NCBI GenBank assembly: GCA_000934665.2
Contig: JYFJ02004038.1
Location: 1 to 35,402 of the forward strand
Reading direction: 5' to 3'
DNA length: 35,402 nt
Source: Catajapyx aquilonaris
Taxonomy: Eukaryota
The position numbers and the translations under genes are program-made. The notes beneath the pieces are model-generated. The model made no database searches and was not told the origin of the DNA. It worked only from the letters and a program-made list of their open reading frames with translations. Shown one piece after another: positions 1 to 27,214 of the stretch. Position 1 is the stretch's first letter, and each line of letters opens with the position of its first letter.

Positions 1-116
1 TAGGTTTATTCTCATGAGTTTTATTAGTTCATATGTTGGGTTAGCTTGTGTCTCCCTTCATCGCTGACTACCCCTCATAGGGAAATGTCGTGATGTTGTT
101 GTTTGTTTGTTTGTTT
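1..116 (+). mobile_element. 3' end of a non-LTR retroelement with a (GTT)/(GTTT)n tail, cut by the window edge
   Basis: Positions 1-100 match 15561-15660 at 99 of 100 bases. Confidence 0.8.
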
Positions 117-195
117 GAAGATAAGCAAAAGAATATGTAGATAAACGGATGGTTTGGGTTCCCTTAGGTGCACTTGTATTCTGCATATGGTGTCA

Positions 196-426
196 CAGGG
201 GTCGAATCTTAAATTTTTTGTCCGCGCGCAAAGTTTGCACTCCAGACTTTCATCTGGAGTGCAGATTGCTGACTCGGAGTGCTTAATTTTTAATTACTGG
301 GTTTAGCGAAGTTAAAAAAGAGGACCAACTGGAGTGCAAACTTTGCACTCCATGGCTCACTTTGGAGTGCAAATCATAATTTTGGAGTGCAAATTGCACC
401 TTTGCATCCGAATATTTCGACCCCTG
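196..426. mobile_element. hAT-like MITE
   Basis: Termini CAGGGGTCGAA / TTCGACCCCTG, internal repeats of GGAGTGC(AAA), and imperfect ggtgtc flanking repeats. Confidence 0.6.
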
Positions 427-505
427 GTGTCTGAACTGCAGTTGAAGTGAGACAGAAGGGTGAAGACTTATCAATTTCTCTTAATGATGAGGTTTAAGAG
501 TTATA

Positions 506-919
506 CAGGGTGGACCAACTTCAAGTGTCGTTTTATAACGGCGATTAATAGCAGTGATTTTGCGATTACGTAGCAGCGACGTGTAAAATGTCCCACTTCG
601 GCGCCATTGAAAATATTAGCTGCCAATAGCAGCACATATGTAATCAACCCTGCTGCTGGGTTGACCTGGAAAAAAGTAGGTGCACACATGACCTGAGATG
701 CGCTTGGGTGAAATGCCTTCTTTGCCGACTGCCGGATTGGCATTGGTGCCGCATGTGGTTGCACTCCTTGCAGCAGGTTCAGTACATGTACGCTAATATT
801 GGCAGCTAATATTTTCGATGGCGCCGAAGTGGGACATTTTTCATGTCGCTGCTACGTCAATCGTAAAGCGCTTCTATTAATAGCCATTATAAAACGACAC
901 TTGAAGTTGGTCCACCCTG
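506..919. mobile_element. Tc1/mariner-type MITE with about 120-bp TIRs
   Basis: ta|CAGGGTGGACCAACTTCAAGTGTCG... (506-628) is inverted at 797-919. Explains the mirror-image ORFs 501-764 and 799-999. Confidence 0.85.
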
Positions 920-1051
920 TGTACATGGTGATGGCACCTGAAAGAAGTGGTGGGGGGTTGCATTTTTTCTGCAGTTTGATGGATTATGTCATTAAATAGT
1001 AAATATGGTGGTATGTGAAAAGTAAATGCCACATTGTGCTAATAATTGCAG

Positions 1052-1270
1052 ACATGGCCAATCGATGGAGGTATCAGTGCATATCCTAAACCAGAGAGTC
1101 GAGATTTGCTTTTGACTGGACATGAGGATGGAACAGTCAGGTTTTGGGATGCCTCCTCACTCACTCTGACTCCACTATACAAGTTCACCGCCTCGCAGCT
1201 CTTTACTGGTGATGAAATGAATGAATCTGGTGGATGTGGAGATGAAGAAGAATGGCCTCCTTTCAGGAAG
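1052..1270 (+). CDS. l(2)gl: Lgl internal exon A (phase 0-0): TWPIDGG...RDLLLTGHEDGTVRFWDAS...EEEWPPFRK, WD40 region
   Basis: ttgcag acceptor ends at 1051 and AAG|gtactg donor starts at 1271. WPIDGG and LLLTGHEDGTVRFWD are hallmark Lgl/tomosyn motifs. The gene continues upstream of the window. Confidence 0.95.
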
Positions 1271-1345
1271 GTACTGGCAGTTTATTGTAGAACTGAAAAC
1301 CAATCATTTGGAATGATAAGTCACAAAGGCAACACACTATTCCAG

Positions 1346-1498
1346 GTTGGCACATTCGACCCTTACTCAGATGATCCTCGCCTGGCAGTGAAGAAGATCC
1401 TCCTGTGTCCCCTCTCAGGGACTCTAGTCGTAGCTGGCACTGCTGGTCAGATACTCATTGCCAAAATCAATAAGGAAGAACTGGATAAGGAATTAAAG
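1346..1498 (+). CDS. l(2)gl: Lgl exon B: VGTFDPYSDDPRLAVKKILLCPLSGTLVVAGTAGQ...KELK
   Basis: tccag acceptor and AAG|gtaatt donor. Splicing to exon A restores the conserved WPPFRKVGxFDPYSDDPRL. Confidence 0.95.
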
Positions 1499-2129
1499 GT
1501 AATTTTTGCATGCAGAACTAAGAACTTATATCGTCATAATTGAAAATTTTCTAAGAAGTGATAGTGATGCAATGGAAGCTACACAAATATATTAAAATTT
1601 TACAAGTACAAGTCTAATACATGACATCAAATTAGTGACATGAATAATCACCTAGTTGGATTATGATAAAATGATAGTATCCAAACCCTACTCTGTTTGC
1701 TTTTGAACGAAGAGCTGGTTTCAAGATGAAATATCAAATTGGGGACTGCACTCCACATGTGAGCCTTGACATGCTTCTCATCTACACCTGCCTTTATTTT
1801 TTATCACCATTGAGTGGACGAACTATGAACAGATGGAATAATTGTGATTTGGATAGGATTTTTTGTCATACCCTCGAATCCAGATTGGGCCAATGATATT
1901 TTTTATGCTGACAGATACTGCCCTCAAAATGACCACCCTACGTTAAGTGCTCTTCAGGTTCACAGCAGGCCGTCATAGAAGTTTGTTATCTTTCTGAATC
2001 ACCCTGTATAATTTAGCAAAAACAATTGATAAAATGTTAATTTTTTTTACATGAAACCCTAGCCTATCACAATATATGTGCATGTGCCAAGTACCTGTGA
2101 ATTACAGAACATCCTTGCATTTTTTGCAG

Positions 2130-2394
2130 ATGACCACCCTGAACATTGTGTCAGATCGAGATGGGTTTGTGTGGAAGGGTCATGACCAACTCACCCTAAA
2201 GTCAGGCTCGACAAAGATGAGTCCTGGATTCCAGCCAACCTCCCTGTTGCAGCTACATCCACCGGCCGCAGTTACTGCACTAACGTTACATGCTGAATGG
2301 GGCTTGGTGGCTGCCGGGACTGCCCATGGCCTGGGCATGTTTGACTACATTCGTGAGAAAGGAGTGGTCACCAAATGCACTCTTAATCCCAATG
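2130..2394 (+). CDS. l(2)gl: Lgl exon C: MTTLNIVSDRDGFVWKGHDQL...LHPPAAVTALTLHAEWGLVAAGTAHGLGMFDY...CTLNPN
   Basis: ttttttgcag acceptor and G|gtaaac donor (phase 1). Contains the Lgl motifs F-x-WKGH, EWGLVA-x-GT-x-HG and CTL-x-P. Confidence 0.95.
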
Positions 2395-2645
2395 GTAAAC
2401 CAGGACAGTGTTATAGATGGCATGCTCCAAATTCTGATATTTGAAATTCTGTAGTGTGCTAAAAAGAGGGAGTGGGATCACTAGGTGATAATAGAGGAGC
2501 TGGTAGCTCGGATTGTTCCAGTGTAGTTATGGCTTAGGAAGATTAGCCTTTAAAATTTTTCTGCTTATCCCCTATCATCTCTGCTAGAGATAACTGCATG
2601 TCAACAACACCTAATGTTCAGTAGTGATCAGTTGATTGTTTGCAG

Positions 2646-2799
2646 ACCTCTCTGGTGCCGGGGATGTTCCAATTTCACGTCGGAAGTCATTCAAAAAGTC
2701 ATTGCGAGAGTCATTCCGTCGACTTCGTAAGGGTCGCTCCCAACACAATGTTGACAAGAGGGCACAGGCATCACCAACAAAAGAAGTGAAGAAAGACGG
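2646..2799 (+). CDS. l(2)gl: Lgl exon D with the aPKC-phosphorylated polybasic domain: DLSGAGDVPISRRKSFKKSLRESFRRLRKGRSQHNVDKRAQASPTKEVKKDG
   Basis: tttgcag acceptor and GG|gtgagt donor (phase 2). Not in the ORF track; translated by hand. Matches the known Lgl SRRKSFKKSLRESFR phospho-cluster, which distinguishes Lgl from tomosyn. Confidence 0.95.
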
Positions 2800-2869
2800 G
2801 TGAGTAATTCATTGTGTACTCTCTTTGTTCGTACTGAAATATCCTGTTCTATGTGGGTGAACCATTTAA

Positions 2870-3054
2870 CCCCTTAAATATGGATATTTGCTGACAATGT
2901 GGATTTATTTTTCTGCCTTTTCTGAGAATGTTGGCTCTTTAAAATCATTGATGGTTGCAGAGTAGTTGAGTGATTAAGACCAGCTTCCTGAGCAGCTCCT
3001 CAAGGAATATGCCTAATAAAAAATTAAGAGCGACATTTTGCATTATTTAAGGGG
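2870..3054. mobile_element. TTAA-flanked (piggyBac-like) MITE
   Basis: ttaa|CCCCTTAAATA ... TATTTAAGGGG|ttaa, 11-bp TIR. Confidence 0.65.
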
Positions 3055-3992
3055 TTAATTATTTGTGTTAAAGACCATTTTCCACTTGAGAAAAATAGGT
3101 GGTAAAACCACAGTATTCCAGTGAAAAAAATTCAATGAGAGTATTTGTAATTTTGTCATTGGCAAGCAGGTTTTTACCTATTTTGCTCCATTTGGAAGCC
3201 TAACAGGAGTGTGTTGTAGTAAGTTTAGATCAACTTGCACTTCTGTATCATAGTTATCCATTTTTTCTACAATCATGTGACACAAATATATGTGGTACGT
3301 AGCATCTGGATGAAGTTGAAAGTGGTAGTTTTGCTGTGTGCATTGTAGACTATGTTTTGGGAAATTTACCTTTTATTGTTGCACCATTTCTGTTGCACCT
3401 ATTTAGTTGGATGAGTTTCGGTTGTCCCTGTCTTTCGCATTAATGCTGACATCCAAAGTGTAGCCCTTGGGTAGTGTTGTTCAGTTGGTAGTCTCTGCAT
3501 ACAAAGAATGGCCAACTAGATCATATCTTCAGAACTAACAGATTGTGGGCCAGCAATAGTAGGGTTAAGGAAAAAACACTACGTTTGTGGACATGTTCTG
3601 GTTATATGTACAGGTTCTTACCTAAAAGAAGCATTATAGCATGCCATGGGAGAATAGGACCAAGCTGGATTGCATTGGAATTGCAGATTCATTCATTGTA
3701 GAGAAAGGGGATCAATGGAAAATAATTTTTGGAACATTATTTTGAAGCAGTACTAAGGTCATGAGGAAGATGTGTGCTTTAATTGAAGATACTTGGGATT
3801 TGTAGAAGTAAATCCTTTTTGGACAGAGTGAGCATTAGGCACAAAAGAAAATGCAAAGAACCAGGGGGGAGGGTGGCAGTGGAATATTATTCTTGCCTAC
3901 GTCATTTAGACAGGTTGTTTAAAAATTCAGCTCAGATCTGGATAGGTGAAATGCTTGCATACCCTTCAGACTCCAGTTGGCATGTTGTGCAA

Positions 3993-4377
3993 GGCCCCGG
4001 TCACACTAGACGGAAATTCCGTCGCCGAATGATTTTGCAAATTTTTTACACGCCGCATTTCCGTCAACCGTGCTGCCACCTTGCTGCCCTTTCAGCTACC
4101 AATCCCCTGGTTTCCATGCCAGAAAAGCCCCTTTTTCCGTCGGTAGTGTGGCCTTTCCCCAGCGGAATCAATGTATTGCAATGGGATTATTGTCCCCGAC
4201 CGAATCAGAGGCCAATTTTTTCCGTCATGTCTTCGGCTGGTGCTCGACGGAAGGATGGAAAATCCGTCGTGTGTGTCGCCTCCCAACCGAGTCCTGTTTA
4301 CTTCCATGTGTTGGATTTTTTTAGCGGAACCCGACGGAATTTCCGTCGGGGAAATTCCGTCTAGTGTGACTGGGGCC
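3993..4377. mobile_element. PIF/Harbinger-like MITE
   Basis: TIR GGCCCC(G/A)GTCACACTAGACGGAA, flanked by caa and taa. Internal GACGGAA/TTCCGTC repeats. Confidence 0.8.
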
Positions 4378-4851
4378 TAAGAGTTGCATATATTGAATAC
4401 AATATGCAAACAGACCTCCCATCTGTGTTGCCCAAAATGCCAAGTGGGAGGTATCAGGTTTCCATTACTGGGCTGACTTTTGGGATACATGATATATGGT
4501 ATGCATTGAAGTAGTTTGTGAAAAAGTTATGTGCCAACAAAATTTTGCAGATGATTCCAACTTGACAATATCACCTGGCAATACCCATTAAGGACCAGTT
4601 GTGTGTTCAAAGGTAATGCCAGAGCTATTGGCTGGTGTATGTCATTCATACTATGTTAGTCACATGATGTGTTTACTTTTGATCATTCAACCAGCCATAA
4701 ATATACTCTCAGCCAAATATTATAATGGCCACTTTCTTACATGAAACACCAGTGAAAGTGGTCACAATATTATTTGGTCGGTAGTACACTACTCTCACAC
4801 TGATGTCACATTAATTGTGGACTGCTCTCATGGTTGCAATCAGCCCCCAGA

Positions 4852-5793
4852 CACTCCCCCTATAATCAGTTCTTATCGCCTAATGGGGCGTTTTGCGGGA
4901 GGTGCTCACTTGAGAGCGCCTGTCTCTGATGTAAATACATGTGGCGACCCTACCGGACCATGCTGACCTTAGGTAGAAGGGAAGAGTTGGTCAAAATTAA
5001 GAATATCATACTAGCATCCTTGCATATCCTCGTATTAGATTCTTAATTTTGACCAATGATGAGAGCACCTTTCACTGATGCAAACACATGTGGCGACCCT
5101 ACCGGATCGCACTGAACTTAGGTAGAAGAGAAGAGTCTGTACACATACCGTATTACCTCTCATATTGCGGCTTGCCGGTGTAGGCGAGGTCGACCAGTTC
5201 TTAAAAATGCTTGATCTGGTGGATATACCGGCATGTCTGTCTAAGTGAGGTATGCCAGTATAAGGCGAGGTTTTCACATAAGTTACATTATCCTTTCTGA
5301 ACTTGACATTGCCTGAAAATCAAAATTCGCGTGAAGGCTATCGAAAAGGCACATTTTCCAAATAGGGTACCCGTACCATATATTGTTTTCAATGGCAGTG
5401 TTTGGCAATAATCTCTATTTAAACAGTATGTTAGAGCAGGGGGTTCCCCTGTCAAAGCAGGCTGACGATGGGATTGGTCATACACTTTACATTTTTTAAA
5501 TGCGCTGTGCAACAGAAGTGACATATTCTCACAGCCTGTACACTTGCCCATTTTCATTGTAATATTATTTTAGTAAGCTACCAGAAGCATTCCAAATTTT
5601 TTGGCAAGGATCAAAATTACGGAAATTTACCTCGGTTATTGCTACATGCCGGGTTATACCGGCATGCTGGTCGACCTCGTTTTATACCGGCGTGCCGCAA
5701 TATGAGAGGTAATACGGTATATTTACATCAGAGACAGGCGCTCTCAAGTGAGCACCTCCCACAAAACGACCCGTCAGGCGATAAGAGGGAGTG
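4852..5793. mobile_element. Non-autonomous TIR element (outer) hosting a nested MITE
   Basis: 4872-4937 (tcttatcgcc...gagagcgcctgtctctgatgtaaata) is inverted at 5720-5787. Termini CACTCCC/GGGAGTG. Internal direct repeat of about 50 bp at 4937-4987 and 5086-5136. Confidence 0.7.
5148..5717. mobile_element. TA-flanked MITE (pogo/Tigger-like CCGTATT ends) nested in the previous element
   Basis: ta|CCGTATTACCTCTCATATTGCGGC ... GCCGCAATATGAGAGGTAATACGG|ta. Confidence 0.85.
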
Positions 5794-7659
5794 ACCAGAC
5801 CTAAGTATTCTAAGGCCATGGTTGCAATTATCTGTTAAAATCTTTCTATGGTATTATAGTGGTTAGTCATCATTACGTGCACAGGAGCATGTTTCTGACT
5901 TTGCGAGTCACTGCTTACTTGCAGTAGAGGTTGTTATTACTGTAGCATTAGAATTTATACTTGGAGGATTGTTGTTAAACAAAAGGTGGTTCAGACTTTT
6001 CTACCTTCTCTAGTGAGGTTAATGTGTTAATCTGCATTCACAGAAGCTCCACAATTGCACACAATCATTGCATAACTTTAATGTAGGCAATGAACGTGCC
6101 AGTATGATAAGACTCTGTGATATATTCTTGTACACCTCATTTCTTGAATGCAGGTAGCTTGTGAAGGACCTCCTGGTAGAATTTAATATACTCTTCACTT
6201 TTCAAGTGATCAACTCTCAAGTGATGCTACGGTGGTTTCACGTAATGTTTAAAGTTTATGGCATGATGTCTTTTTGACATTGTACAAAGTTCTTGAACAG
6301 GAGACTAATTTCTTTCATATAGGCTGACCTTGTTATATGTCCACATTTTTATACTGTCACTACAATGCTGACAGTTGTTTTTTTATCTCCTCCAAAATAT
6401 TCACGTCAGTACATACAGTATCTGTGCTCAAATAATTTAACCAGTATTTAACCCAGATATGCCGGGAAAAGTTTTTGATGAATTTTTGAACTTTTTTTGT
6501 TTCTATTAGTTCGCATTAGTTCCCAAAACACAAAAATCAAGATTAAACATTTTTCTGAATGCTTGTTTGTGAGAAAATGGCAGTTCCCTATAATTATGGG
6601 ATGCTAGGAAAATGTAACCTAGTATGGCTATAACAGGTGTTGATTACATTACCATGGCATCCTTTATGAAATTAATTTGTGTTCTCTCCATACTGAGGAA
6701 GTCTTTTATGATGTATGATATGGTTATTTCTGGGTTCTTGTAGATGTGAATAGCCTGAATACAGAAGGTACGAACTCTATGGTGTAAAGAATGTTGCTTT
6801 GTACTGAAAATCATTTAAAATATTATCATTATCAGTCACTCTGAAGGTCACTTCTTTCATGTGGTAAGTGCCACAAGAAGTGTGACATGTTCATTTGTGT
6901 TCAATTCAGAGGATGATTATTGAAAATATTTGATAGTTGTTTCCTTGATCCATTTAGAATAGGATTGTGCAGGTAGTTATCCATGTGAATGGGGTTCTGG
7001 ACAAAATTTTGAGAACCTGTCTTAACAAATCAGCCGTGGCCTATGAAATGTTTTTGCACAGAAAGAATGTCCAAATTAGTTATCATTTTTCTGTGAGACA
7101 GGGTTGAAAATAATTGAGGGGGGGGGGGGGATTACATTTTAATCCCATTTCTGTGATGTCACAGTAAATAACTAACTGCTTCGAAAAATTTCTAGTTAGA
7201 GTAATGGTATTAAAGCTTCACACATTTGGGCTCTATTGCATACATTGCAAAACTGTATCACTCCCAAGCATTTTACTTGGAAGTTGGCATTCTTCATGCA
7301 CATTTTTCATCTTGGAGGTGTGCCTTTGTTATATTGGGCTATTCAAGAGAACTTAATTCTACTCCTATTGGGTTCAGATGTTACTGTACTGGAATGTATT
7401 GCGGCTTCTTTTTGTTAGATGACAGTACCATATTCTGATTCTTATAATAATGACTTACCTTGGGCAAACAGACAGACCTAGCTGATTAGTAATATAAGAT
7501 GAATGGGTAGATGCACTTGGAAGGTGCATCTTGAAATAAATTATTGGAGTATATTAGTTACACACATGGCCTCATTCAGTGCTGAGGTGCAGCTTTCAGC
7601 TGAGTACTAGCTCAGGAGAAAACTTGTTCTAGTCACACTAACATATCAAGGGACTTGAC

Positions 7660-8673
7660 AATTGAAGACATCACTTGCCACAGGCCCCAACTCCACTAGG
7701 CGAAATTTTTCAGGAGAGACTAAAAACTATGCATAATGGCTCAATTCAGAGTTTCGTGGTTTATGATGCTAAAATGGCTCCATTATACACACCTAGTGGC
7801 ACAGACATCATCTACTAGAAAGCAATAGGTCAAAGTCTATTGATGGTCAAAATCAGTGGATTTGGCCCCTTTGGAAACTGAACGCCCAAAACAATGGTTC
7901 CTGTTGCAAATTTCAGTGGTATAGTCATGCCTGTCCATCTGAACACATCATATTCGTGAAGTAGTACTACAAAGAAAGGTGTGACCAGTTTTATTTTCAT
8001 CCTATGTTAATTATTATTAACATCAATCAAAATCTATTTACGTCCAGTCAGTTGCCAAAGGGCCCAACTCCAGTAGTAGGTAATGGACTGCAAATCGTCA
8101 CATTCAATTTTAAGGCATTTGTGATTGACTTAGGATCTTCATCTTACCAGCCCTACCAACACACGTGACAATGGGGTGCCGATTTTGCCGACTAATCATA
8201 CCGAAATGGTGACTACATTAGATACCTTGGTGTCAACGCCTTTTAGGTGTCATTTGTGTAACTTATTTAATACACTAAATTTTCCAGTACCAGTGAGATG
8301 CCATAATAGTAATGAAAACTTGGCACCAATATTGGTGACAAAGTATAGGCACCGGTTAGGTACCAATCACTAACCAAAATCATCAGTACTTGTTATCTAT
8401 GAACATGTTGGTATTATTTCAGCACCAGTTAGACACCATGCCGACGAAATTCTGCAGTGTCATTGGCACCAGACATATCGGTATCCTATTGGCACTGGTA
8501 AAGTGGCAAATCCTCACCTTTTTGGTACCGCATATTTAAACATGGCACCATTTCGCCACCAAGTGTGTTTGTTGGGAGGGCTGTGAGGTCCGCCTCCAAG
8601 AGTAGGAATCTGCAGTAAAATGGTTTTTCAATATTTTGGGAGTTGGGCCCTTTGGCAAGTGACGTCTTCAATT
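7660..8673. mobile_element. Non-autonomous TIR element with AATT ends; possible nested element at 8151-8580
   Basis: aattgaagacatcacttgccacaggccccaactcc (7660-7694) is inverted at 8639-8673. A third copy of the subterminal motif lies at about 8052-8071. Confidence 0.6.
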
Positions 8674-9432
8674 TGAAATTAGCTAGATATTGAAACTGAC
8701 TTGTGAGTGCTATTGAATAAAGTTTGAGGTGCCATAGTTCTTTATAATTGAACAGTCTTAAGCCTTAGCATGTGTAACCTGGATAACTACCTGTCAGAAT
8801 TGTTGCACTTGGTTGCGTATTCCATAGTACGGGAACCAAGGCTGATTGCTTGATTAGGTAACTGTCTAGGCTGTACCTTCTAAGGGCCTCAGAAAGAATC
8901 CCCCGAAAATCGTGGTTGGGGTGTTCACACATGCCCTTCCTCCACCCGATTGTGATTACCAAGTTGACTCAGGGAATCAGCTTGTAGAAGTTGACTGCCA
9001 GATTTCCAGATTACCTGATGTCACTCCCCCTCCGGACCGGTTCTTAGCCGAGCCACATGGCAGCTCTCTGCTTAGCCCCTTCTGCCGCCTCGCACTGCGG
9101 GCAGCCAAGACCTGTCCAATAATGTAGATAACATGCCTCCATGCTATTTGAGTCAGACCTATTGTAGAGTCACCCATGGCTTTTGCTGTGAGCCGAAGCA
9201 AAAGTCATTTTTTCGCCAGGTGGGAGGGCGTGCTTTCAGTGCCATCTACTGAAAATCGTGAAAAGTACGTGGCTCGTGTGAACAGTCACCAAACTATCCT
9301 GATTTTGCCCGTCAGAATCGTGGTTGAAGATCGAGATTTTGTGGCACGTGTGAATGGCCCTAATATGCCTTTCCATCACCCTTATGTAAGTTAATTGTTA
9401 GCGTGGTATGAAGTGTTGATTCTGTTGTACAG

Positions 9433-9618
9433 TGAAGTTGAAGAGAAAAGGCTGGAAAAAGTGGAAGAGAATGTTGAAGACAAAGCTGAGGGTGCTGAGG
9501 AGAAAGTGCAGGAGAGTAGCGTAACTAATGTAGAAGGAGATGTCGCAAGAGCCGAAGAAGAGCACAAGGAAGAGCACAAGGAAGAAGAAGAAGAAAGCAA
9601 GGAGGTGGAAGATGAGGG
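9433..9618 (+). CDS. l(2)gl: Candidate Lgl cassette exon E, 62 codons, Glu-rich (EVEEKRLEKVEENVEDKAEG...EEHKEEHKEEEEESKEVEDEG)
   Basis: ttgtacag acceptor and GG|gtaaaa donor. 186 nt, phase 2-2, in frame with exons D and F. Purine-rich, coding-like island inside an AT-rich intron. Confidence 0.7.
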
Positions 9619-10211
9619 GTAAAAGCTTTTCAATAACTTGCCAAATGTTTTTGGTGGTTTTTTTCTATGGTATAGTAGTTGGTAATTCCTAGATAATTTT
9701 GCATGGCAGAAGGAAATTATGAGACATTATTATTATTATTGAAACTTTAAGGTGTTATTCTTCAGCATTTCATCTCTTCTGCGTTATTGGCCGTCCTCAT
9801 GTTGTATCTTGCTAATAGGCTTGTGTGTCGCAAGAATTTCCAAATGCATGTAGCCTCTCAGTAGTGTGTTTTATAGCCTCTTTTTCAGTAATTTGCTTAT
9901 TGTGGTAATTTATTTACATTTTTTGGGGGTCCCAGTGTTAATGACAAAAATTAACAGGGAGTGTTGGAGCATATTGAAGTCCTTACTGTTTGGTTAGGGC
10001 ATGGATGTTTTCTGAGTGTCTTGAGATTGCATTGCCAGGGTAACTTGTATTATCTTGGAAATGCATATTGGTGGTGACTTGTGCTAGTGACAGTTTTATG
10101 CATCATACTGATATCCCAGTGTAGTAATTTTCTACTGGTATTTTGCAGGTTACATTTTATAGGACAAACGGGGAAAAAAAAAATCAAGTTGCAATGGTAC
10201 AATTTTATATA

Positions 10212-10654
10212 CATTGTGAAGGGAAACTCGGGGACAATCGCCAGGTTGACTGATTGTACTCGCAAAACTAATATAGGGATGTGCAATTAGTGTTTGGCTC
10301 CATTGAGTAGTTAAATACGTATGGAGCCCTTAAAGTGTAGAGGGCCAGATGGTGGAATATGAGGCAACAACGACAAAGTGCATGGGTGTCGTACCCGGAT
10401 TCTTACTCTGATGGGATTTGATCCCCTTTTGCACAAGGACGATGTGTTAGGGGACCAAGGCAAGGGACCGGAGGCCCTCGAACTGACTTTTGCTTTTAAG
10501 AAGGTGGCGGAATGGATGTGACGTCACAAAACTTTGACAGCGCCGTACGCATTAACTATGCAACTGAGCCCAAAACTAATTGCACATCCCTATATTAGTT
10601 TTACGAGTGCTATCAGTCTACCTGGCGATTGGGCACGAGTTTCCCTTTACCCTG
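10212..10654. mobile_element. TA-flanked MITE with about 115-bp TIRs
   Basis: gggaaactcg...caatcgccagg...aaaactaatatagggatgtgcaattag is inverted at 10540-10654, ending accctg|ta. Confidence 0.8.
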
Positions 10655-13600
10655 TATATCCAATCAGAAAACAAGAAAGCAGGTTGTGTCTGGATGGACA
10701 TAAATTAATTCTTCCATTAGTATCTTGCTTTCACTCTCTCCATGTTTGACCCATATGACATGATTTGACAGTCTTTCAGGTTGTGACAAATTAAAATCAT
10801 CGTGTAATGTGCTTTAGAGATGAATTTCTGCAATCTTCCAGGGTTTATTAAAGTACATCAAATTAATATTGAACGGTGCTCTGGGTTACAAGTTGATAGG
10901 GACACAAATGTGCTAATGCATTTCCCTTGGAAGTAAGCTACTTTGAACTTCTGCATTGTAGACAGTGCATATTTAGTGATTCATCTGGACTTTGAAAACA
11001 TAATATTCCTCCCTTTTTACTCCTTACACAATTACATTCTTGTACCCATCACATGTTATCACGAAATTGCTGCCCTAGCGTGGGTGCAAGGTTTCAAACC
11101 TGGTTTTTCATGGCCACATCTAAACTTGATACAGCAATCTTGTACAGGAAAGCTACTGAATCTGGTATGTAAGAGTGAACATTATGCCAGATTGCACTTT
11201 AATGCATGGAGTTATGTGCCCTTTGGGCCCCTGCCATCCTTGCTTAGGATGCAAGTGTTCCACTTGGATAGCCATGGTAAATCCACTTCTCTTGTCTTCT
11301 TTTCCCTGGGTAATGAGACTGAAAATCTTTCGCATTATTTTATACACCTAATTGTGTTCTCCATGACATGTTACATAGTTGAGATTACTAGCTTTTGCTT
11401 GTAATGCCAAATAGGTGACCAGTTCCTGTTGTGGCAGAAATATATTATTGTTGTGTGAAGAGCAGATAAGTGGTATTACCTTCAGTGCAAAGACCAGTGT
11501 GCCAGTGTAATCATCATATAATGAGTTTCTAACAGCTGATCATTCTTGCTTTTACTTGCATGCAGATGTTAGCATGTTGTATTTGATAAACAACCCAGAT
11601 TAGATAATTCCACTGGGATGGATTAATGAAGCTCATAAAATTGGGTATAGGTTAGGAAACTGAATTCAAGGATGATTGCCAATTTGGATGAAATTCAAGA
11701 GTTAGTGTTCTTAGTAATTGAAGGGGTTGGTTGGTGGAAAAACCAGATATGTACACTTTTGTTACTTTCGAGAAAACAAAGAAAAACTGAATTACCTGCT
11801 AATTTAAAAATGTTTCTAATTATAATTTTTTGTTTAATAGGGGGATACCAAAGTCTGTAGTGAACTGTGGTGCAAAGCACACTTCTTTATGGGTGCATAG
11901 GTACAGGAACTTAAGGCTGGGATATAGATAATCCGGACTTCTTCGAGTTACAACTCCTGCCGAAAGAGCAGGAGACACTGGATCCCACCCTCCCTACACA
12001 AAAGAATGGTCGCATTTGCGGTTGACCATTCCCTCTAGGCACAATAAAAACTGTGAAAATTAGGGTTCCCCCCACTTCTAGTAGTTCTCAAATCAGTCAA
12101 ATTTTGACAAAATTATTATTTGCCGAAAGGTTATAGCTAAATAGAAAAATCGGCTTCACGGGTCCGGAGCACCTCATTTTTCCGCATATTTTGGTGCTTG
12201 TTACGACATCACTTAAAATTTTACGACAGAGTAAATTACTCCCTAATGCAAATGACTTTTTAAAATACTACATTAAGAATATGGGAAAAGTACAGCACAC
12301 ATGTGTAAGAGAGAGGTCAGTTACACTTACACACAAAAAAAATCAGTTCTGCTGCTGTTAGTTAGCAAGAACTTTACTCCCAAATTCTCTATCCCCCCCC
12401 CCCCNGGGGGGGGGGGGGGGGGAATAAATCCAAATGTCCTTATATGATGAGGACTTTAGGACTCTAGAGGCTATATTTTCTCAGTGGAGGGTGTGACAGG
12501 TTTGATTTTTGAGCCAAAAGATGCAGAATGGTCCCAAGATAGCAGAAACACCCATAACTGATTTTCAGCCAAAAATGGACATATCCTGTTTTTCCACCAA
12601 ACCCTTCAATTGTTCATTCCGATAATATATTGTGATTGAACCACAATAGGACAAAAAAAATCACATTTGTGTATTGTGTTTTTAGGCATGGCAAACCAGT
12701 TTTGTGTGCCCCTAAAGGATAAGTGGTTTTTTCCTGCCATTATTAGAAATAAAGGCAAGTTCTATGCTGGTTAGGGTACTTTCATTGAATAAAACAAAAT
12801 CCATCTGCAAAGAAGGAGGGTGGAATGGCTTTTAACTATTTTTTTCTCTCCCTTGTACTCAGTTTTAGGGGATTCATTACTGTAATCCATCTTGGCAGGA
12901 TCCAAATGTCTAATCTTGGGTGCCTAGGGTAATAAACTCTACTGAATTATATTTTTAAAGGGCTGCCTTGTATGAACAGTACTGATGTTGATGAATCTCC
13001 ATTACCTGGAAAGGCTCAATTTTGTACGTGCATTACTCAAACCTGGTTTCGATAAGTGCAGTAAGTGAGGAGTACTACGGCATTTTTTAGTAATGGAATT
13101 ACAGCAATAGTGTGCAGGAAGCTTCCATAATGTAGCATCTGGCACATGGGAAACATCCTGAAGACCTAGTTTAAAACTCAATGGATCATCTGACCAATTT
13201 TTGGGATGTGACAACATTTAAAATTCTGATGTGTACTCATGTGGCTCATGGACTTAAAACAAGTTAGTTTTTTGCAATGATGTGTAATATTTCAAACAAT
13301 GTAAATGTAGGCCTGTGTGTACCCAAGATTACTTGTACAAAGAAAGATATCTGCAAATCATGATTATGCTTGTTTTGGTATGCAGTTATAATAGTAACAG
13401 GAACAGTGTCATGGAGGTTCGCAACTCTGTTTTATTATGATTAAAGGATCAAGGATTTGCAATATTTAAATCTAGAAAGTCAATTGTTTCTAGGAATATA
13501 AAAATGTTGCACATTTTTGGAGCCCTTGTCAAGCCGCTTGAAACTTGGGAGATTTGTAAATTCCCATATGCTTCCTCAAGTTGTAGACCAAGACTACCTC

Positions 13601-14006
13601 TTCAGCAGTATTATAGTTTTTAGGTTTTTTTTTAGCAAACACGACCATGCCATTTAGACCGAAAAGCTGAGGTTACAACACATGTTCCCCATTATTTTGA
13701 AGGAATCCATTCGAGATGTTCATTATTTATCAGTGTATTTGGATGTGATGTACTATGTCGTTCAATGGTTCCATTGCAAAATCGTCTTCATTTTTTTGAG
13801 CAATATAGTACTTGCTTGATTTTTCTGCTTGAGCTTCATGGAAAACTGAAGCATCAACATGTTGTTCTGATGATATAATTTGGTGTTTTTGTATGTTATA
13901 CAAGTAATTCTAATTGCTTCAACCGAAACTGTTGAATTGGCAGCACGTTTCTTATAATGTGTGCATTAAGAACCTATACTAATGTCTTACTCCTTGGAAA
14001 TACCAG

Positions 14007-14161
14007 AGCCACTGCTGTTGAGGCAGAAACTTCACCAGCATCCCCAGCCAGTCCCATTGAATCCAAGCCAGTAGAAAGACAAGTGGAAGCAAGACCCCAA
14101 GATGATGCTCTTGGCAGCATGGTCCGCTGTGTGTACTTGACCAAAAGCTACATTGTCAGTG
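14007..14161 (+). CDS. l(2)gl: Lgl exon F: ATAVEAETSPASPASPIESKPVERQVEARPQDDALGSMVRCVYLTKSYIVS
   Basis: taccag acceptor (phase 2) and G|gtaaga donor (phase 1). Conserved PVERQ-x-EAR...S-x-VRCLY-like motif. Confidence 0.93.
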
Positions 14162-14437
14162 GTAAGAAAGTGTCCTTTGATATCTCCCATGTTAACTAGA
14201 ATGAACCTCCAGGAAGAGCCCTTCTAAAGAGGAGTAAAGGGGGAAGTACTGCTCACAATTTAGGATTACATTTATCATGGGACGCCATGATACAAGGAGC
14301 AAAATAATTTGCCTACTGGATAACAAATAGGAAGGATTCCTGTAAGAGGTTTCTTTCTTGGTAGACCATCCACTAGTTGTAGTTACTAGAATCTAGACCA
14401 TGCTTGCCATAACAGCTGCTTTGTGTCACAATTACAG

Positions 14438-14554
14438 TGCAAAATATGACACCTACATTGTGGGCTGGCACCAACAGTGGCGCCATATACATCTTCACAA
14501 TTGCAGTGCCATATGGCGAGAAGCGGCACACTGAGGAAGTATCATGCTTGCTTG
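14438..14554 (+). CDS. l(2)gl: Lgl exon G: VQNMTPTLWAGTNSGAIYIFTIAVPYGEKRHTEEVSCLL
   Basis: ttacag acceptor and G|gtgagg donor. Conserved P-x-LWAGTNSG motif. Confidence 0.95.
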
Positions 14555-14623
14555 GTGAGGAGTAATTTGAAGGAAATGATTATTTCATGGGGCTTGTTTT
14601 AATATATATTTTATTTTGTGCAG

Positions 14624-15017
14624 CTAAGGAGATTCAGCTGAAACACCGAGCTCCAGTCCTAGCCATAGGAATTGTGGATGGTGTTGGCAGACCCCTACCA
14701 GAGCCCCTAGAAGTTGAGCGTGGTCTAGCAAAGGCTCCAGATGTGTCAGGCCACCACAGGGTCGTGATTTGCTCAGAAGAGCAGTTCAAGGTGTTCCAGC
14801 TACCCAATTTGAGGCCTTTCTGCAAGTTTAAGCTTACTGCACATGAGGGTTCCCGTGTCCGCAAAGTGGGATTCATTACGTACAGGTCTTCAGCAGACAA
14901 CAAGTATATTGAGAGCTGTGTCACCTGTCTGACAAATCAAGGAGACTTGATGATCTTAGCCATCCCTGACCTCAAACGACAGATGACTGTCAACTGCATT
15001 CGGAGGGAGGATATCAA
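14624..15017 (+). CDS. l(2)gl: Lgl exon H: AKEIQLKHRAPV...HRVVICSEEQFKVFQLP...KFKLTAHEGSRVRKV...CLTNQGDL...CIRREDI
   Basis: ttttgtgcag acceptor and AA|gtgagt donor (phase 2). Lgl C-terminal propeller motifs KEIQL-x-HRAPV, SEEQFKVF-x-LP and KLTAHEG. Confidence 0.96.
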
Positions 15018-15398
15018 GTGAGTTGTTTTGAAATTGTGCTGTATTGATTGCTTGATATTATACATTGTTCCAATTGAAGTGTTAAATGGGTACTGACAGG
15101 GGGGTCGAAGACATTACTCCTGTACCATGCTTGCCACTGCCATCATTGGTGTCATGACACAAAGTATGGTGTCAAGTTCACCCATATCAACTACCTCACT
15201 AAACCCTCCCCCCTGAGTTTGAGTTAGAAGTGTGTGAGTCTCAAGTCATTTTTGATATAACAGGGTGTTTTCCAATTTCATGCTTTTCAGTTTAGGCATC
15301 ATCAAATATCATGATGAATTTTTTTTTAAATATTATATTTGTTTTTAAATGTTGTGCTCAAGCTAAAATTCCTGAAATATTCAGGCAGGTAGCTGGTA

Positions 15399-15958
15399 CA
15401 GTCCCGCTCATAAAGAATGGTGCAACTCTATGGACGAAATGTTTATCCTGATTATCGAGCATTATTCCCAACCTTAATTCGACAAAATATGACCAAAATA
15501 TGTCTGAGGATAAGGTGATGTCTGAGGTGGGCAGGGGTGGGGGGTGGGACAGGTTGTTTGTAGGTTTATTCTCATGAGTTTTATTAGTTCATATGTTGGG
15601 TTAGCTTGCGTCTCCCTTCATCGCTGACTACCCCTCATAGGGAAATGTCGTGATGTTGTTGTTGTTGTTGTTAATTCGACAAAACCCTATGGACAACCTT
15701 TTCTGGACCTCTGGTGACTGGTATGACCCATCCCGATTTTTAAATAAAAATTTTAATGACCAAAATGTTCAACCAGGTGCAATGCTTACATAGATTTGAT
15801 GTGGATTTCCCCTTTTTTTCTCTTTTTTAAATTTTATTTTGATTCCCTTTTCCTGGACTTCCTCGTGACCCATAAAAACAAGCTGGCGACCCAGGGGTTG
15901 GGAACATAATAAACACTTCATCCATATAGAGTCGTACCATTCTTTATGAACGGTACTG
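15399..15958. mobile_element. Tc1/mariner-type MITE, copy 1, interrupted by a retroelement fragment
   Basis: ta|CAGTCCCGCTCATAAAGAATGG ... CCATTCTTTATGAACGGTACTG|ta. Homologous, in reverse orientation, to 34435-34820. Confidence 0.85.
15488..15670 (+). mobile_element. Non-LTR retroelement 3' fragment with a (GTT)n tail
   Basis: 14-bp direct repeat ttaattcgacaaaa at 15474-15487 and 15671-15684. Same family as 1-116. Confidence 0.85.
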
Positions 15959-15966
15959 TACATAAT

Positions 15967-16099
15967 GAGTACATTGCTAAACTCAGCCATTGCTGCAGCA
16001 AAACAAAAGAGTAACAATAAAATAACAATAAGTAATATTGTCATTTTATTGTTACTCTTTTGTTTCGCTGCAGCAGTGGCTGAGTTTAGCAATGTACTC
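15967..16099. repeat. 133-bp near-perfect palindrome (64-bp arms, 5-nt loop); foldback MITE
   Basis: gagtacattgctaaactcagcca...caata agtaa tattg...tggctgagtttagcaatgtactc. Confidence 0.9.
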
Positions 16100-16168
16100 T
16101 ATGATTCCCAAAAATCTAGTTCAGCCATTTTTTCACTTGGTTCACTGGCCATCCATCATGGAGCCTTA

Positions 16169-16782
16169 AAGCCTGTTTACGCCCTCACAATGTGAGCCAA
16201 ATTCGCGCAAACAATTTTTCTGTGGGGCACATGTGCGAAGTCGCATACCCAGCAGCTGTTCCTTTCACCTCCTTGATACTCTTTGTGAGGAGGTGGTCAG
16301 CCGTGGTGGGAGGGAAACTGGGTGGGACCGGAGGGGACTGGGGGAGGGGGGGGGGGTTATGTGTCAAGCAGCATTCCTAGCAGTATTAGACCAAGCTCCT
16401 ATGGGTCCTTCTTAGTTGCAGCCATCTTGGTGGAGAAGAAGGGCAGTCTCTATGAGGAAGCTGATTGGTTCCGAAAAGAGGGAGCAGAGGGAAGGCGGTC
16501 ATTCAAGTCAAAGTCGTTGTGCGCACGCCTTTCTGCTAGCTCTTGAGGGAGACTCAGAAGGAGGGAAAGCCTTGGATTGGCCAGGTGAAGTGGGAGGAGG
16601 GGGAAGGAGTAGCAGCAAGGGAGACGGATGCGTGCTTTCCAAGACGACGAAGACTGTCTCAAACAGATATGGTCACATATGCTGGAGTTGTTCCGACAAA
16701 ACCTAGGGCAACCCCCTTTTGTCGTTTGCTAAGCTCCTTGCCGCACGAATTTGGCTCACATCGTAAGGGCGTAAACAGGCCT
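16169..16782. mobile_element. Harbinger-like MITE with a GC-rich interior
   Basis: gcctgtttacgccctcacaatgtgagccaaattcg is inverted at 16745-16780, with tta flanks. Confidence 0.8.
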
Positions 16783-17126
16783 TTAACAGGTGTCAAAAAT
16801 TACACATTCTTAGGCCAGGCTGTATGCCAACCAAGAGGGAGGTCATTGCATCCCTACTGCTGTGGTCCTCTACCTCTGGCTAAGAAGGCAAATCTTTAGG
16901 TCTTTGCCAAGGTTAGGCTTGTCGTCACACAACATAATTTCCCATTTTCGCACACGCATGATTTACTTATGGCAGAAGCTCGAGGGCTAAACTAGTTCCT
17001 GGGGCAAACAACCCCTAACTTCTCCCCAGATTACTGTCTTGAATTGTGGGCTTATGCTGGGCAACACTCTGTATAATAGCCAAGGTGGTGCAGTTGAGGT
17101 AATTTTAAATATCTATTAATTATTAG

Positions 17127-17386
17127 TGGCATCAGCAGCTTGGTGTTCACCTGCAACGGAGAAGCTTTCTATCTGCACTCTTCAAGTGAGATGCAGCGGT
17201 TGACATTGTCCGCTAGCCATGTAACAGCTCCCCGTTGCCACCTGGAACTGCCAGAAGGTGTTCGTGTACCACTGGTATATGATTCAGCAGCTACTGCCGG
17301 TACAGTGGACATTCCTGAGGAGACTGTGGAAGAAGTGGCAGAAGTCAAGGAAGTGAAAGAAAGAGGCATTGAGGCAGAAAGGCCAG
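17127..17386 (+). CDS. l(2)gl: Lgl exon I: NGISSLVFTCNGEAFYLHSSSEMQRLTLSASHVTAPRC... followed by the start of the acidic tail
   Basis: ttattag acceptor and G|gtaagg donor. Joining gives the conserved EDINGISSLVFT...G..FYL.S.SE..R. Confidence 0.93.
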
Positions 17387-18209
17387 GTAAGGGGTGTCCC
17401 ATAATTTTCACAATATTGAGTATTTCACAGTTAGGAGGAGGGAAAGATATGTTGCTTTGTGGATAGTCGAGCCTGCAGTGTCACAAAACAATGAAAAATT
17501 GCTAACAAACCTGAACAAATATAGATTTTGTTCATATTAACTTGACAACCGAAGGTTGAGATGTTTCTCCTGTGCATCCCAAAGTAGTATGCCGTCTGTC
17601 ACCCACTGACCACCTATCTTCCAGACCAAAATCAAATCTAGAGATGAATTGTGGAGTGACTAATCGAAATGGATTGTCTCCTGACAAACACTTTTGAGAC
17701 ATTTGCAACAAAACACACATCCAAACTGTGAGCATTAGATGCATTAGTGCATGAGGGCGTTAGCAGCTGCAATTTTGCCGTTTCCTGAGATGTTCTGGGG
17801 CATGTACATGTGAAATTGACACAATTTTTGAACCTAAAAAATTTATTTATAAGAGTTGCATTTCATCCTTGAGAGATTTGATTTTGTTAAGTTTTGATTA
17901 GTCACCCCAAACACACACACTGTTGTGATCCTTTTCTTTCTGACAGCTGCATTCCTGTGCCTCTTGCAAAGCTTTTTGCAAATAAATGTTGAATCCTCTT
18001 CTCTTAGTAATAGTGCGGTAGCTCTATCCATCTTCCTCTTCACTACAATATATTTGTGTGCTAAGGCTTGGTCTTGGTTGTCTTTTTAAAGCCAAATCCG
18101 TTCGTTTATTCTTCCCTAGCAGTGGTGCTTCTATGCATATGGTGTAAAGGGTCTGTAAATATTGTGTCTTAAGATTGAAACTACTTATATCATTTCTGTT
18201 TATTTACAG

Positions 18210-18372
18210 AGGAGAAAGAAGCTGAAGTTGAAGCTCCCAAGGAAGGGGAGAAGAAAGATGAAGAGAAGAAAGATGAAGACAAGGCAATTGAAGTAAGGGA
18301 GAACAACATAGATGAGGAGAAGCACGATACAAGTGCTGACATTACCATTGATTCTGTCCGGGACCACTTGGT
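18210..18372 (+). CDS. l(2)gl: Lgl exon J: EEKEAEVEAPKEGEKKDEEKKDEDK...HDTSADITIDSVRDHLV
   Basis: tttacag acceptor (phase 1) and GT|gtgagt donor. In frame. DITIDSVRDHL resembles the LLGL1 tail motif DVTVEDVKDFL (recalled from memory). Confidence 0.85.
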
Positions 18373-18433
18373 GTGAGTATTTTGCAAAGAGGTGGATTGA
18401 ATTTGGGAGGAGGTAAATGGAAATGATTGGCAG

Positions 18434-26267: not shown

Positions 26268-26990
26268 TTACATACTGCTACTGTCAACAGGTTTCAAATA
26301 CTGAAGCTTTAGTTTGTACAGACCAGGTAAAAGAGCTAGCAGGACTTGATGAGTAAGGATAGCTGTCATGCCCCAAATTCGATGTTCTCCACCCACGAAG
26401 ACAGGTAAAGTGTACCTTGACTTTTTAAACTGGGTGTATCTTGCATTCTCTGGTGAAGCCAGGCTCCTTAATGTCCTGGTGAAGGCAAGTTCAACTTCAG
26501 CATGATTGACACGAAGCTTGCTGATGTCCACTTCACCAATGCACCCTAACAGAGGGCGTATGACAATTTGGCCTGTCTTATCAGTCACTGGAGCAAATTG
26601 TGTCCATATTTTAACTTGTTCCCTGCTGATTCCCAGCTCCTCCTCTTGTTCTCGTAGGGCAGTTTCTATGAGGTCCTTATCTTGTGTATCAGACAGACCA
26701 CCTGGGAAGCTGACCTGACCTGCGTGGCTCCTCATATGTTTATTTCGTAGTGTGTATAATAACGAGGCTTCTTCATTCACAGTACACAGGGGTATTATGA
26801 CTGCAGCTTCACGTCTCACGATGTCAGCTTTTGGGAGGCGGACGCCCCGTGCCTTTGCCAAGCTGGCAATACAATTCCTCTTGTTGTCAGGAGAGAGAGC
26901 ACTCTCAAAAGTGAGGCTGCTAAATGGTGCTAGTCTGATCACTTGGTGGTTTCCAAAGCTGCTAGCCATCTTGGTGTGCATTTTCAACAT
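26268..26990 (-). CDS. NUDT8: Nudix hydrolase, CoA diphosphatase subfamily (NUDT8-like, probably mitochondrial), about 240 aa, single coding exon
   Basis: CoAse motif LLYTLRNKHMRSHAGQVSFPGG followed by the Nudix box GGLSDTQDKDLIETALREQEEELGI. C-terminal YTLPVF.GG.HRIWGMTA typical of NUDT8. First ATG at 26990, alternatives at 26981 and 26969. An acceptor tctattgcag ends at 27003, implying an upstream exon. Confidence 0.92.
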   Translation of the reverse strand: MLKMHTKMASSFGNHQVIRLAPFSSLTFESALSPDNKRNCIASLAKARGVRLPKADIVRREAAVIIPLCTVNEEASLLYTLRNKHMRSHAGQVSFPGGLSDTQDKDLIETALREQEEELGISREQVKIWTQFAPVTDKTGQIVIRPLLGCIGEVDISKLRVNHAEVELAFTRTLRSLASPENARYTQFKKSRYTLPVFVGGEHRIWGMTAILTHQVLLALLPGLYKLKLQYLKPVDSSSM

Positions 26991-27091
26991 GCATCTGGTA
27001 CTCTGCAATAGAGAACATTGCTGTAAATAGGAAACTAGAAAGCAGGGTGTTCTGGTAGGAGTGAGACAGGCTGGAGGGGCATGGCCTAATT

Positions 27092-27214
27092 TGCGGTTTC
27101 CAAACTTTTACCAACTACGACCCCATAAACATGTTTCCATAAATGTGCGACCCTCCCAGTGGACCCCCCCCCCCCCCNNNCCCCCCCCCCCCCCCCCGGG
27201 GTTGGAAACCACTG
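27092..27214. mobile_element. Small degenerate hAT-like MITE
   Basis: gcggtttccaaac ... ggttggaaaccactg, with flanking gcctaat repeats. Contains an N-gapped poly-C run. Confidence 0.4.

Follow-up and report, generated by a model that had tools for sequence, protein, structure and literature searches.

A candidate acidic cassette exon between the aPKC phosphosites and the Par6-binding motif of Lgl in Catajapyx aquilonaris

In human Llgl1 and Llgl2 (PDB 8R3Y and 6N8P; PMC11996676, PMC12216845), loop 10-11 carries an N-terminal P-site with three serines and a C-terminal motif that binds the PDZ domain of Par6, with a variable middle part in between. According to the description of the structure, the loop is about 72 amino acids long, both of its ends are conserved and parts of it form a "plug" (PMC11996676). 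The ends are tethered to the kinase domain of aPKC and to the PDZ domain of Par6 (PMC11996676). The polybasic domain of Lgl binds membrane phosphoinositides electrostatically and phosphorylation neutralizes it (PMC4621827). In this type of switch, for which MARCKS is named as well in PMC4621827, negative charge beside a polybasic motif releases the protein from the membrane.

Tomosyn (STXBP5) belongs to the same superfamily as Lgl and its isoforms arise by exon skipping; the region that varies lies at about residue 730 of the propeller part, and skipping removes the K730 region in tomosyn-s1 (PMC3948876). In contrast to the exon described below, that region is not described as acidic or as adjoining a polybasic motif in the parts of PMC3948876 that deal with the isoforms. 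The initial annotation of the present locus had pointed out, correctly, that tomosyn is alternatively spliced, in what it took to be a comparable variable loop. We take the K730 region to be the "hypervariable loop" of tomosyn.

We analyzed a stretch of 35,402 nucleotides of Catajapyx aquilonaris (contig JYFJ02004038.1), called here the window. Its plus strand contains roughly the C-terminal 60% of the Lgl (lethal(2) giant larvae, or LLGL) gene. Judged from the sequence, the host gene is Lgl, and here the initial annotation agrees with homology searches, with tblastn and with alignments to the human Llgl chains. Three Lgl proteins compared by tblastn fall on 6–7 colinear exons; the exons of Table 1 are based on stop-to-stop frames and on tblastn with three Lgl proteins. 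With the exon sequence 14626–15015, 1,210 of 1,573 candidate proteins match at E ≤ 0.001, and most of those that bear a name are lethal(2) giant larvae or LLGL proteins. The best identity is only 67–69% (spiders, a scorpion and another record), with 64% for a cricket. For the polybasic exon, 613 of 658 candidate proteins match, and the best matches with a name (77–84% identity) come from Polyneoptera. In a quick maximum-likelihood tree of 35 rows, which gives a rough placement, the Lgl of the window is sister to all sampled winged insects (SH-aLRT 90).

Some other features of the window can be described. The frame 1046–1543 (plus strand) is open through a likely short intron at about 1265–1340, as judged by the homologs; an extra ...LAVYCRTENQSFGMISHKGNTLFQ... 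is present in that frame between FRKV and GTFDPYSDD, and a retained intron would keep the frame. The tail exon starts with an E/K-rich acidic run (EEKEAEVEAPKEGEKKDEEKKDEDK...), followed by a conserved ...ADITIDSVRDHL motif, and in style it resembles the cassette. On the minus strand, an open frame of 279 codons at 26268–27107 contains a NUDIX hydrolase domain (Pfam PF00293, E 7.6e-08) and is probably a neighboring gene in the opposite orientation. Six isolated N bases occur (12405, 25964, 27178–27180 and 30840); they are single- or 3-base ambiguities and there are no large gaps.

Table 1. Positions of the Lgl exons, of the candidate cassette exon and of associated elements in the window
Feature	Position	Strand	Description
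Lgl exon	about 1049–1501	+	contains a short in-frame intron
Lgl exon	2124–2405	+	from frames and tblastn
Lgl exon, start of loop 10-11 with polybasic/aPKC phosphosite motif	2646–2799	+	ends GG/gtgagt, phase 2
Polybasic P-site SRRKSFKKSLRESFRRLRKGRS	2675–2740	+	aligns to the P-site of 8r3y_L and 6n8p_A
Upstream intron	2800–9432	+	6,633 nt, with probable interspersed repeats
Acceptor region gtgttgattctgttgtacag	9413–9432	+	moderate pyrimidine tract, possible branch point TTGAT, then AG
Candidate cassette exon	9433–9618	+	186 nt, phase 2-2, 62 codons, 80% purine
Donor GGG/gtaaaagct	9619–9627	+	GT, A at +3 and +4, no G at +5
Downstream intron	9619–14006	+	4,388 nt
Following Lgl exon, with the end of loop 10-11 and the first WD11 strand (GSMVRC...)	14007–14161	+	
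VERQVEA	14071–14091	+	aligns with VQRRIEP of 8r3y_L (V706–P712), the internal Par6-PDZ-binding motif of human Llgl1
Lgl exon	14431–15015	+	from frames and tblastn
Lgl exon	17122–17277	+	from frames and tblastn
Lgl tail exon	about 18208–18373	+	confirmed

The candidate cassette exon reads ...ttgtacag/T GAA GTT ... GAT GAG GG/gtaaaag. Upstream, the polybasic exon terminates with ...GAC GG/gtgagt; downstream, the next exon begins with ccag/A GCC (the end of the latter is corrected here to 14161, with the donor gt at 14162–14163). At both introns, a Gly codon is split after its second base. When 2799 and 14007 are joined by script, the frame stays intact with or without the candidate, which has AG and GT at its borders and only one open frame, the one that joins both flanking Lgl exons. 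Counted with both split Gly codons, the 63 codons comprise 28 D/E, 9 K/R and 2 H, for a net charge of about −19. The exon starts 20 residues past ...RKGRS and ends 21 residues before VERQVEA. This anatomy (borders, phase, charge, distance to the polybasic motif and a skip that preserves the frame) had been given in the initial annotation and is found again when read directly and recomputed. At codon position 1 of the exon, G amounts to 69% and T to 0%.

Judged by eye against the metazoan consensus, the acceptor is moderate and the donor at 9619 is weaker than the gtgagt donor at 2800. Internal AG acceptors at 9451, 9517, 9520 and 9550 would equally preserve the frame. Purine-rich sequences can serve as splicing enhancers. 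Inclusion that depends on an enhancer is probable because of the weak donor (no G at +5), the moderate pyrimidine tract and the purine-rich body; the latter would then offset the weak splice sites by acting itself as the enhancer.

The alignment with the human chains places the three serines of the P-site opposite S655, S659 and S663 of Llgl1 (chain index plus 14 gives the numbering of the paper). This puts the cassette in the middle of loop 10-11 of the second β-propeller, with the aPKC phosphosites on its N-terminal side and the Par6-PDZ-binding motif on its C-terminal side. Loop 10-11 would contain 87 residues in the skipped form and 149 in the included form. The spacer between the S663 equivalent and VERQVEA would be 50 residues without the exon and 112 residues with it; in the human chain, 42 residues separate S663 and V706. 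Unlike the cassette, the middle of the human loop is, as far as it is aligned, not acidic. The aligned loops of the Llgl1 and Llgl2 chains are without insert, in line with the initial annotation, which knew of no such insert in human Lgl.

The initial annotation also noted that the exon is alone in an 11-kb interval. As a distinguishing feature, this does not stand. The intron between 2799 and 14007 (11.2 kb) contains 349 phase-compatible open AG..GT candidates of at least 60 nt, and an open AG..GT frame of at least 186 nt is present in 196 out of 200 mononucleotide shuffles of the intron. Since an open frame of such size is expected by chance, being alone in 11 kb has no weight by itself. These counts speak for a reading in which there is no exon at all and in which 9433–9618 is a degenerate GAA/GAG-type, purine-rich intronic patch, open by chance and flanked by chance with AG and GT; the only mRNA would then join 2799 to 14007. 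The same reading would account for the short tandem structure within the exon (a 12-nt unit repeated 3.3 times at 9547–9585 and five GAA at 9581–9595) and for splice sites that are only moderate, and it agrees with a skipped form of the commonest linker length (see below). Besides, a GA-rich patch of whatever origin gives an E-rich reading in one frame out of three.

Several other properties do single out the patch. No other 186-nt stretch of the window reaches 72% purines (or pyrimidines), and its intron is the very one at which other insects carry an acidic insert. The purine-rich composition begins and ends exactly at the AG and the GT: in 50-nt bins, the share of purines is 0.52 before and 0.82 after the acceptor, and 0.80 before and 0.42 after the donor. 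The 186 nt are divisible by three, and it is the E-coding frame that continues the phase of the flanking exons. With the exon's own bases shuffled, the needed frame is open in 443 of 20,000 mononucleotide and in 125 of 5,000 dinucleotide shuffles (2.2–2.5%). Among the 349 candidates, a D/E content of at least 30% is reached by only five, all nested in 9433–9618 and all with the same donor. The tests that single out the exon were picked after the exon had been seen and are, therefore, supportive and not decisive. With this in mind, we consider that 9433–9618 is probably a real exon of the Lgl gene, and rather unlikely to be an intronic patch that is never spliced in.

The stretch could also be part of something else, such as a nested or antisense gene, or an exonized fragment of a repeat or transposon. 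The minus strand is open over 9391–9726 (111 codons, Ser-rich), an openness due to the low T content; in neither strand does the frame hold an ORF started by ATG. The surrounding introns do contain repeats, but the cassette itself matches no Pfam family and has no second copy in the window beyond weak matches to Lgl's own acidic tail exons. These are its only DNA matches there (67–79% over 33–71 nt, of low complexity), and the best one is the tail exon 18208–18373 (67–77% over 43–71 nt). A match to a repeat family, which the initial annotation would have counted against its own proposal, is thus found neither by Pfam nor as a repeat copy within the window. A repeat or transposon origin was rejected on these grounds, and an unrelated element of any of these kinds is extremely improbable.

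The repeats of the introns are apparent with run X1, which over 900–17600 behaves as low-coverage DNA, with contigs that cover intron sequence (DNA-like contigs span 13394–13632 and 13766–14011 in the downstream intron). Contigs pile up, with many differences, at 5293–5626, 6448–6616, 10300–10570, 11911–12401 and 15400–15950. There, the word depth is 6.5–39x for the longest pieces listed, with summed bins up to 181, and the unique parts are at 1–5x. The intron segments with such pile-ups are probably interspersed repeats. X1 is the one run listed for the exon, with no RNA run beside it; none of its contigs spans a junction 2799–9433, 9618–14007 or 2799–14007, a result that has no bearing on expression. 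The contig of the exon has a depth of 2.7, against 2.7 and 4.6 for intron contigs and 6.5–39 for intron repeats, which is at most a weak hint of a single copy. Related translated motifs (SYRL.GRF.GGAHLRAPVSDVN) occur at 4745–4966 on the plus strand and at 5682–5834 on the minus strand.

The closest relatives by position are annotated in insects. The linker between ...RKGRS and the PVERQ-type motif was taken from 208 Lgl proteins or fragments, of which 187 have both anchors (the other 21 were dropped). The linker has 30–39 amino acids in 150 proteins, 20–29 in 15, 40–49 in 12, 50–59 in three and at least 60 in seven. In the window, it would have 39 amino acids in the skipped form and 101 in the included form. 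Five of the seven proteins with long linkers are from named insects and have an acidic insert directly after K[KR][DE](G). The inserts comprise 23 amino acids in Gryllus, 31 in Periplaneta, 31 in Cryptotermes, 22 in Timema and 61 in Ischnura, with 7–15 D/E vs. 0–2 K/R. All come from gene models (among them, isoform X2 of Periplaneta americana, Cryptotermes secundus, Timema tahoe and isoform X2 of Ischnura elegans). In the five species, the insert is preceded by KKRDG, RKREG, RKKDG, KRKEG and RKRKD; in the window, the polybasic exon ends with ...KKDG.

The likeness with the window extends to several points. The inserts occur at the same junction, after the polybasic exon and before a Ser/Pro-rich run that leads to PVERQ. 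They have Gly at both sides, as expected for split GG/N codons, and they are strongly acidic with few basic residues. They are present in some annotated forms and absent from others, both within Gryllus and between termite records. In Gryllus bimaculatus, GBIM_06018 and its "isoform B" (P0002 vs. P0005) differ at the junction by a 23-amino acid acidic insert. On the other hand, the window exon is longer (62 amino acids vs. 22–31, with 61 in Ischnura), and it has more Lys and His-Lys repeats. A comparison of arthropod Lgl, of the kind that the initial annotation had proposed, turns up acidic inserts at the same junction in five insects, and the idea of an optional acidic insert gains comparative support from the Gryllus isoforms, which differ by exactly such an insert.

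The phase 2-2 unit with split Gly codons is read directly in the window; for the insects, it is only suggested by the Gly at both ends of the inserts and by the stops of ORF fragments. Two genomic ORF fragments of termite-like origin (P0001 and P0054) terminate in ...KKDG, a sign of an exon end at the same codon. A Blattodea-like record (P0013) is without insert at the same point, and termite records differ in its presence. Outside the named insect lineages, most annotated forms have no insert (spiders, scorpion, horseshoe crab, centipede, ants, bees, beetles and moths). Many short beetle-like fragments read through the junction in frame, which indicates that there is no intron there. In an ant-like metagenome locus (L001, 3698–3935), an intron is present at the same codon, after ...KKKD, and with some 50–70 nt it is so short that it leaves no room for a cassette. 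Among 25 metagenome loci, the rest of which are cDNA-like or too short, no genomic copy of a cassette from another species was found.

Alternative forms of Lgl are frequent in insect annotations. The same two Gryllus isoforms differ further by a 44-amino acid insert near residue 933, in the C-terminal part. Annotated isoforms are numerous in bees and ants (up to X16), with 1,003–1,186 amino acids. Such numbers, together with the differences in Gryllus, indicate that Lgl is heavily spliced alternatively in insects.

Searches with the exon peptide give no relative among longer proteins at E ≤ 10, nor any among 1.84 billion representatives at E ≤ 0.001, which again would fit an intronic patch. 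In blastp against the 208 Lgl proteins, the peptide reaches at best 30.8 bits, with acidic C-terminal tails, and 20 of 30 shuffled peptides equal or beat that score. In the reverse direction, with the insect insert peptides in tblastn, 9433–9618 is the best match in three out of five cases, with E of 0.04–0.3, one of them tied with an unrelated place. No similarity beyond composition was therefore found between the cassette and the insect inserts by tblastn or by blastp with shuffles, and the link between them is through place, presumed phase and composition only. Accepting the exon as real, we regard 9433–9618 as a positional counterpart of the acidic inserts of insects, for which common descent and convergence are both possible.

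If the exon is real, it might still be constitutive, with a long acidic loop in every Lgl molecule and no switch by splicing. Three cDNA-like records would fit such an arrangement, since they show long E/K-rich linkers in a single open frame: P0159 with 68 amino acids, L009 with about 63 and L013 with about 107. The existence of these linkers indicates that the length and the acidity of the middle of the loop have varied repeatedly. The three records (L009 at 108–4028, L013 at 119–3871, and P0159) have P-site ends of the RLRKRRSE type and linkers rich in E, K and S; in the quick tree, P0159 sits on a long branch and groups with the vertebrate outgroup. In Gryllus, however, both forms are annotated. 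Regulated cassette exons typically preserve the frame, lie between long introns and combine a weak donor with a purine-rich body, and the window exon has all four traits; the skipped product, moreover, fits the commonest linker class (150 of 187). A constitutive exon seems to us improbable. On balance, we lean toward a real exon of the acidic-insert kind that is alternatively included.

Another possibility is that the exon acts by its stiffness and not by its charge, as a helical spacer or ruler that holds the phosphosite motif off the Par6-binding motif or off the propeller. AlphaFold2, with a single sequence, predicts one helix over residues 2–59 of 61 (mean pLDDT 81.5); for an E/K-rich peptide, such a prediction is weak evidence. 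Stable single α-helices (ER/K) have near-equal numbers of E and K/R, with frequent opposite-charge pairs at i,i+4. In the cassette, acidic residues dominate (28 D/E vs. 9 K/R), six of the i,i+4 pairs are of opposite charge vs. 14 acid–acid, and the assignment to single α-helices was rejected for the charge imbalance and the few opposite-charge pairs. The insect inserts, in addition, contain several Gly. A role as a helical spacer is accordingly quite improbable, even a little more so than a constitutive exon.

With alternative inclusion as the preferred reading, two forms of Lgl would be produced. The skipped form would have the 87-residue loop, with a linker of the commonest length class. In the included form, 62 acidic, E/K-rich residues with a net charge of about −19 would be put into the poorly conserved middle of loop 10-11. 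The acidic segment could fold back on, or screen, the polybasic motif (+12), with a lower electrostatic affinity for the membrane as a result and no need of phosphorylation. The insert would thereby supply in cis the negative charge that acts in the polybasic phosphorylation switch. The two cases differ in that the charge of the cassette is fixed by splicing, instead of depending on a reversible kinase, and in that it is 20 residues away and not within the motif.

The insert would, in addition, nearly double the tether between the loop ends held by aPKC and Par6, and capture and multisite phosphorylation would be altered. From the P-site to the Par6-binding motif, the spacer would be more than doubled (from 50 to 112 residues), which could lead to a looser two-point capture by aPKC–Par6. 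Since the exon is located between the aPKC phosphosites and the Par6-PDZ motif, an effect on capture by aPKC–Par6 is at least as plausible as an effect on the membrane. The initial annotation had spoken of a switch of cortical localization; the exon may be one, as its charge leads us to infer. The functional idea is reasonable, and it should be widened from membrane binding to aPKC–Par6 capture. Either mechanism, charge screening or tether lengthening, is put forward tentatively, as somewhat unlikely on present evidence.

One could go further and see in the exon an old optional acidic module that predates winged insects. Such a module would have been kept in the lineage of the window, in Odonata and in Polyneoptera, and its loss would have gone along with a shortened or missing intron (as in the ant-like L001). 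By screening the polybasic motif and lengthening the aPKC–Par6 tether, it would work as a brake independent of phosphorylation. Through the choice of splice form, a cell could then adjust the cortical share of Lgl and the ease with which aPKC–Par6 captures and releases it. Taken as a whole, this scenario is improbable.

Taken by itself, the window yields only a modest gain, namely a probable exon of the sort that an annotation pipeline lacking RNA data would overlook. The exon joins a kind of insert that is annotated in databases for several insect orders and that appears to be unstudied; a full-text search, which covered texts outside subscription journals and supplements, found no paper on alternative splicing or on an acidic insert in loop 10-11 of Lgl. 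The membrane binding of Lgl and its antagonism with aPKC–Par6 are explained today by the phosphorylation of one loop. An optional insert of 62 residues with a charge of about −19 in that loop would be a second control, at the level of splicing. The inserts annotated in several insect orders suggest that a layer of polarity regulation has been overlooked outside flies and mammals, for which the cricket and the cockroach are tractable organisms.
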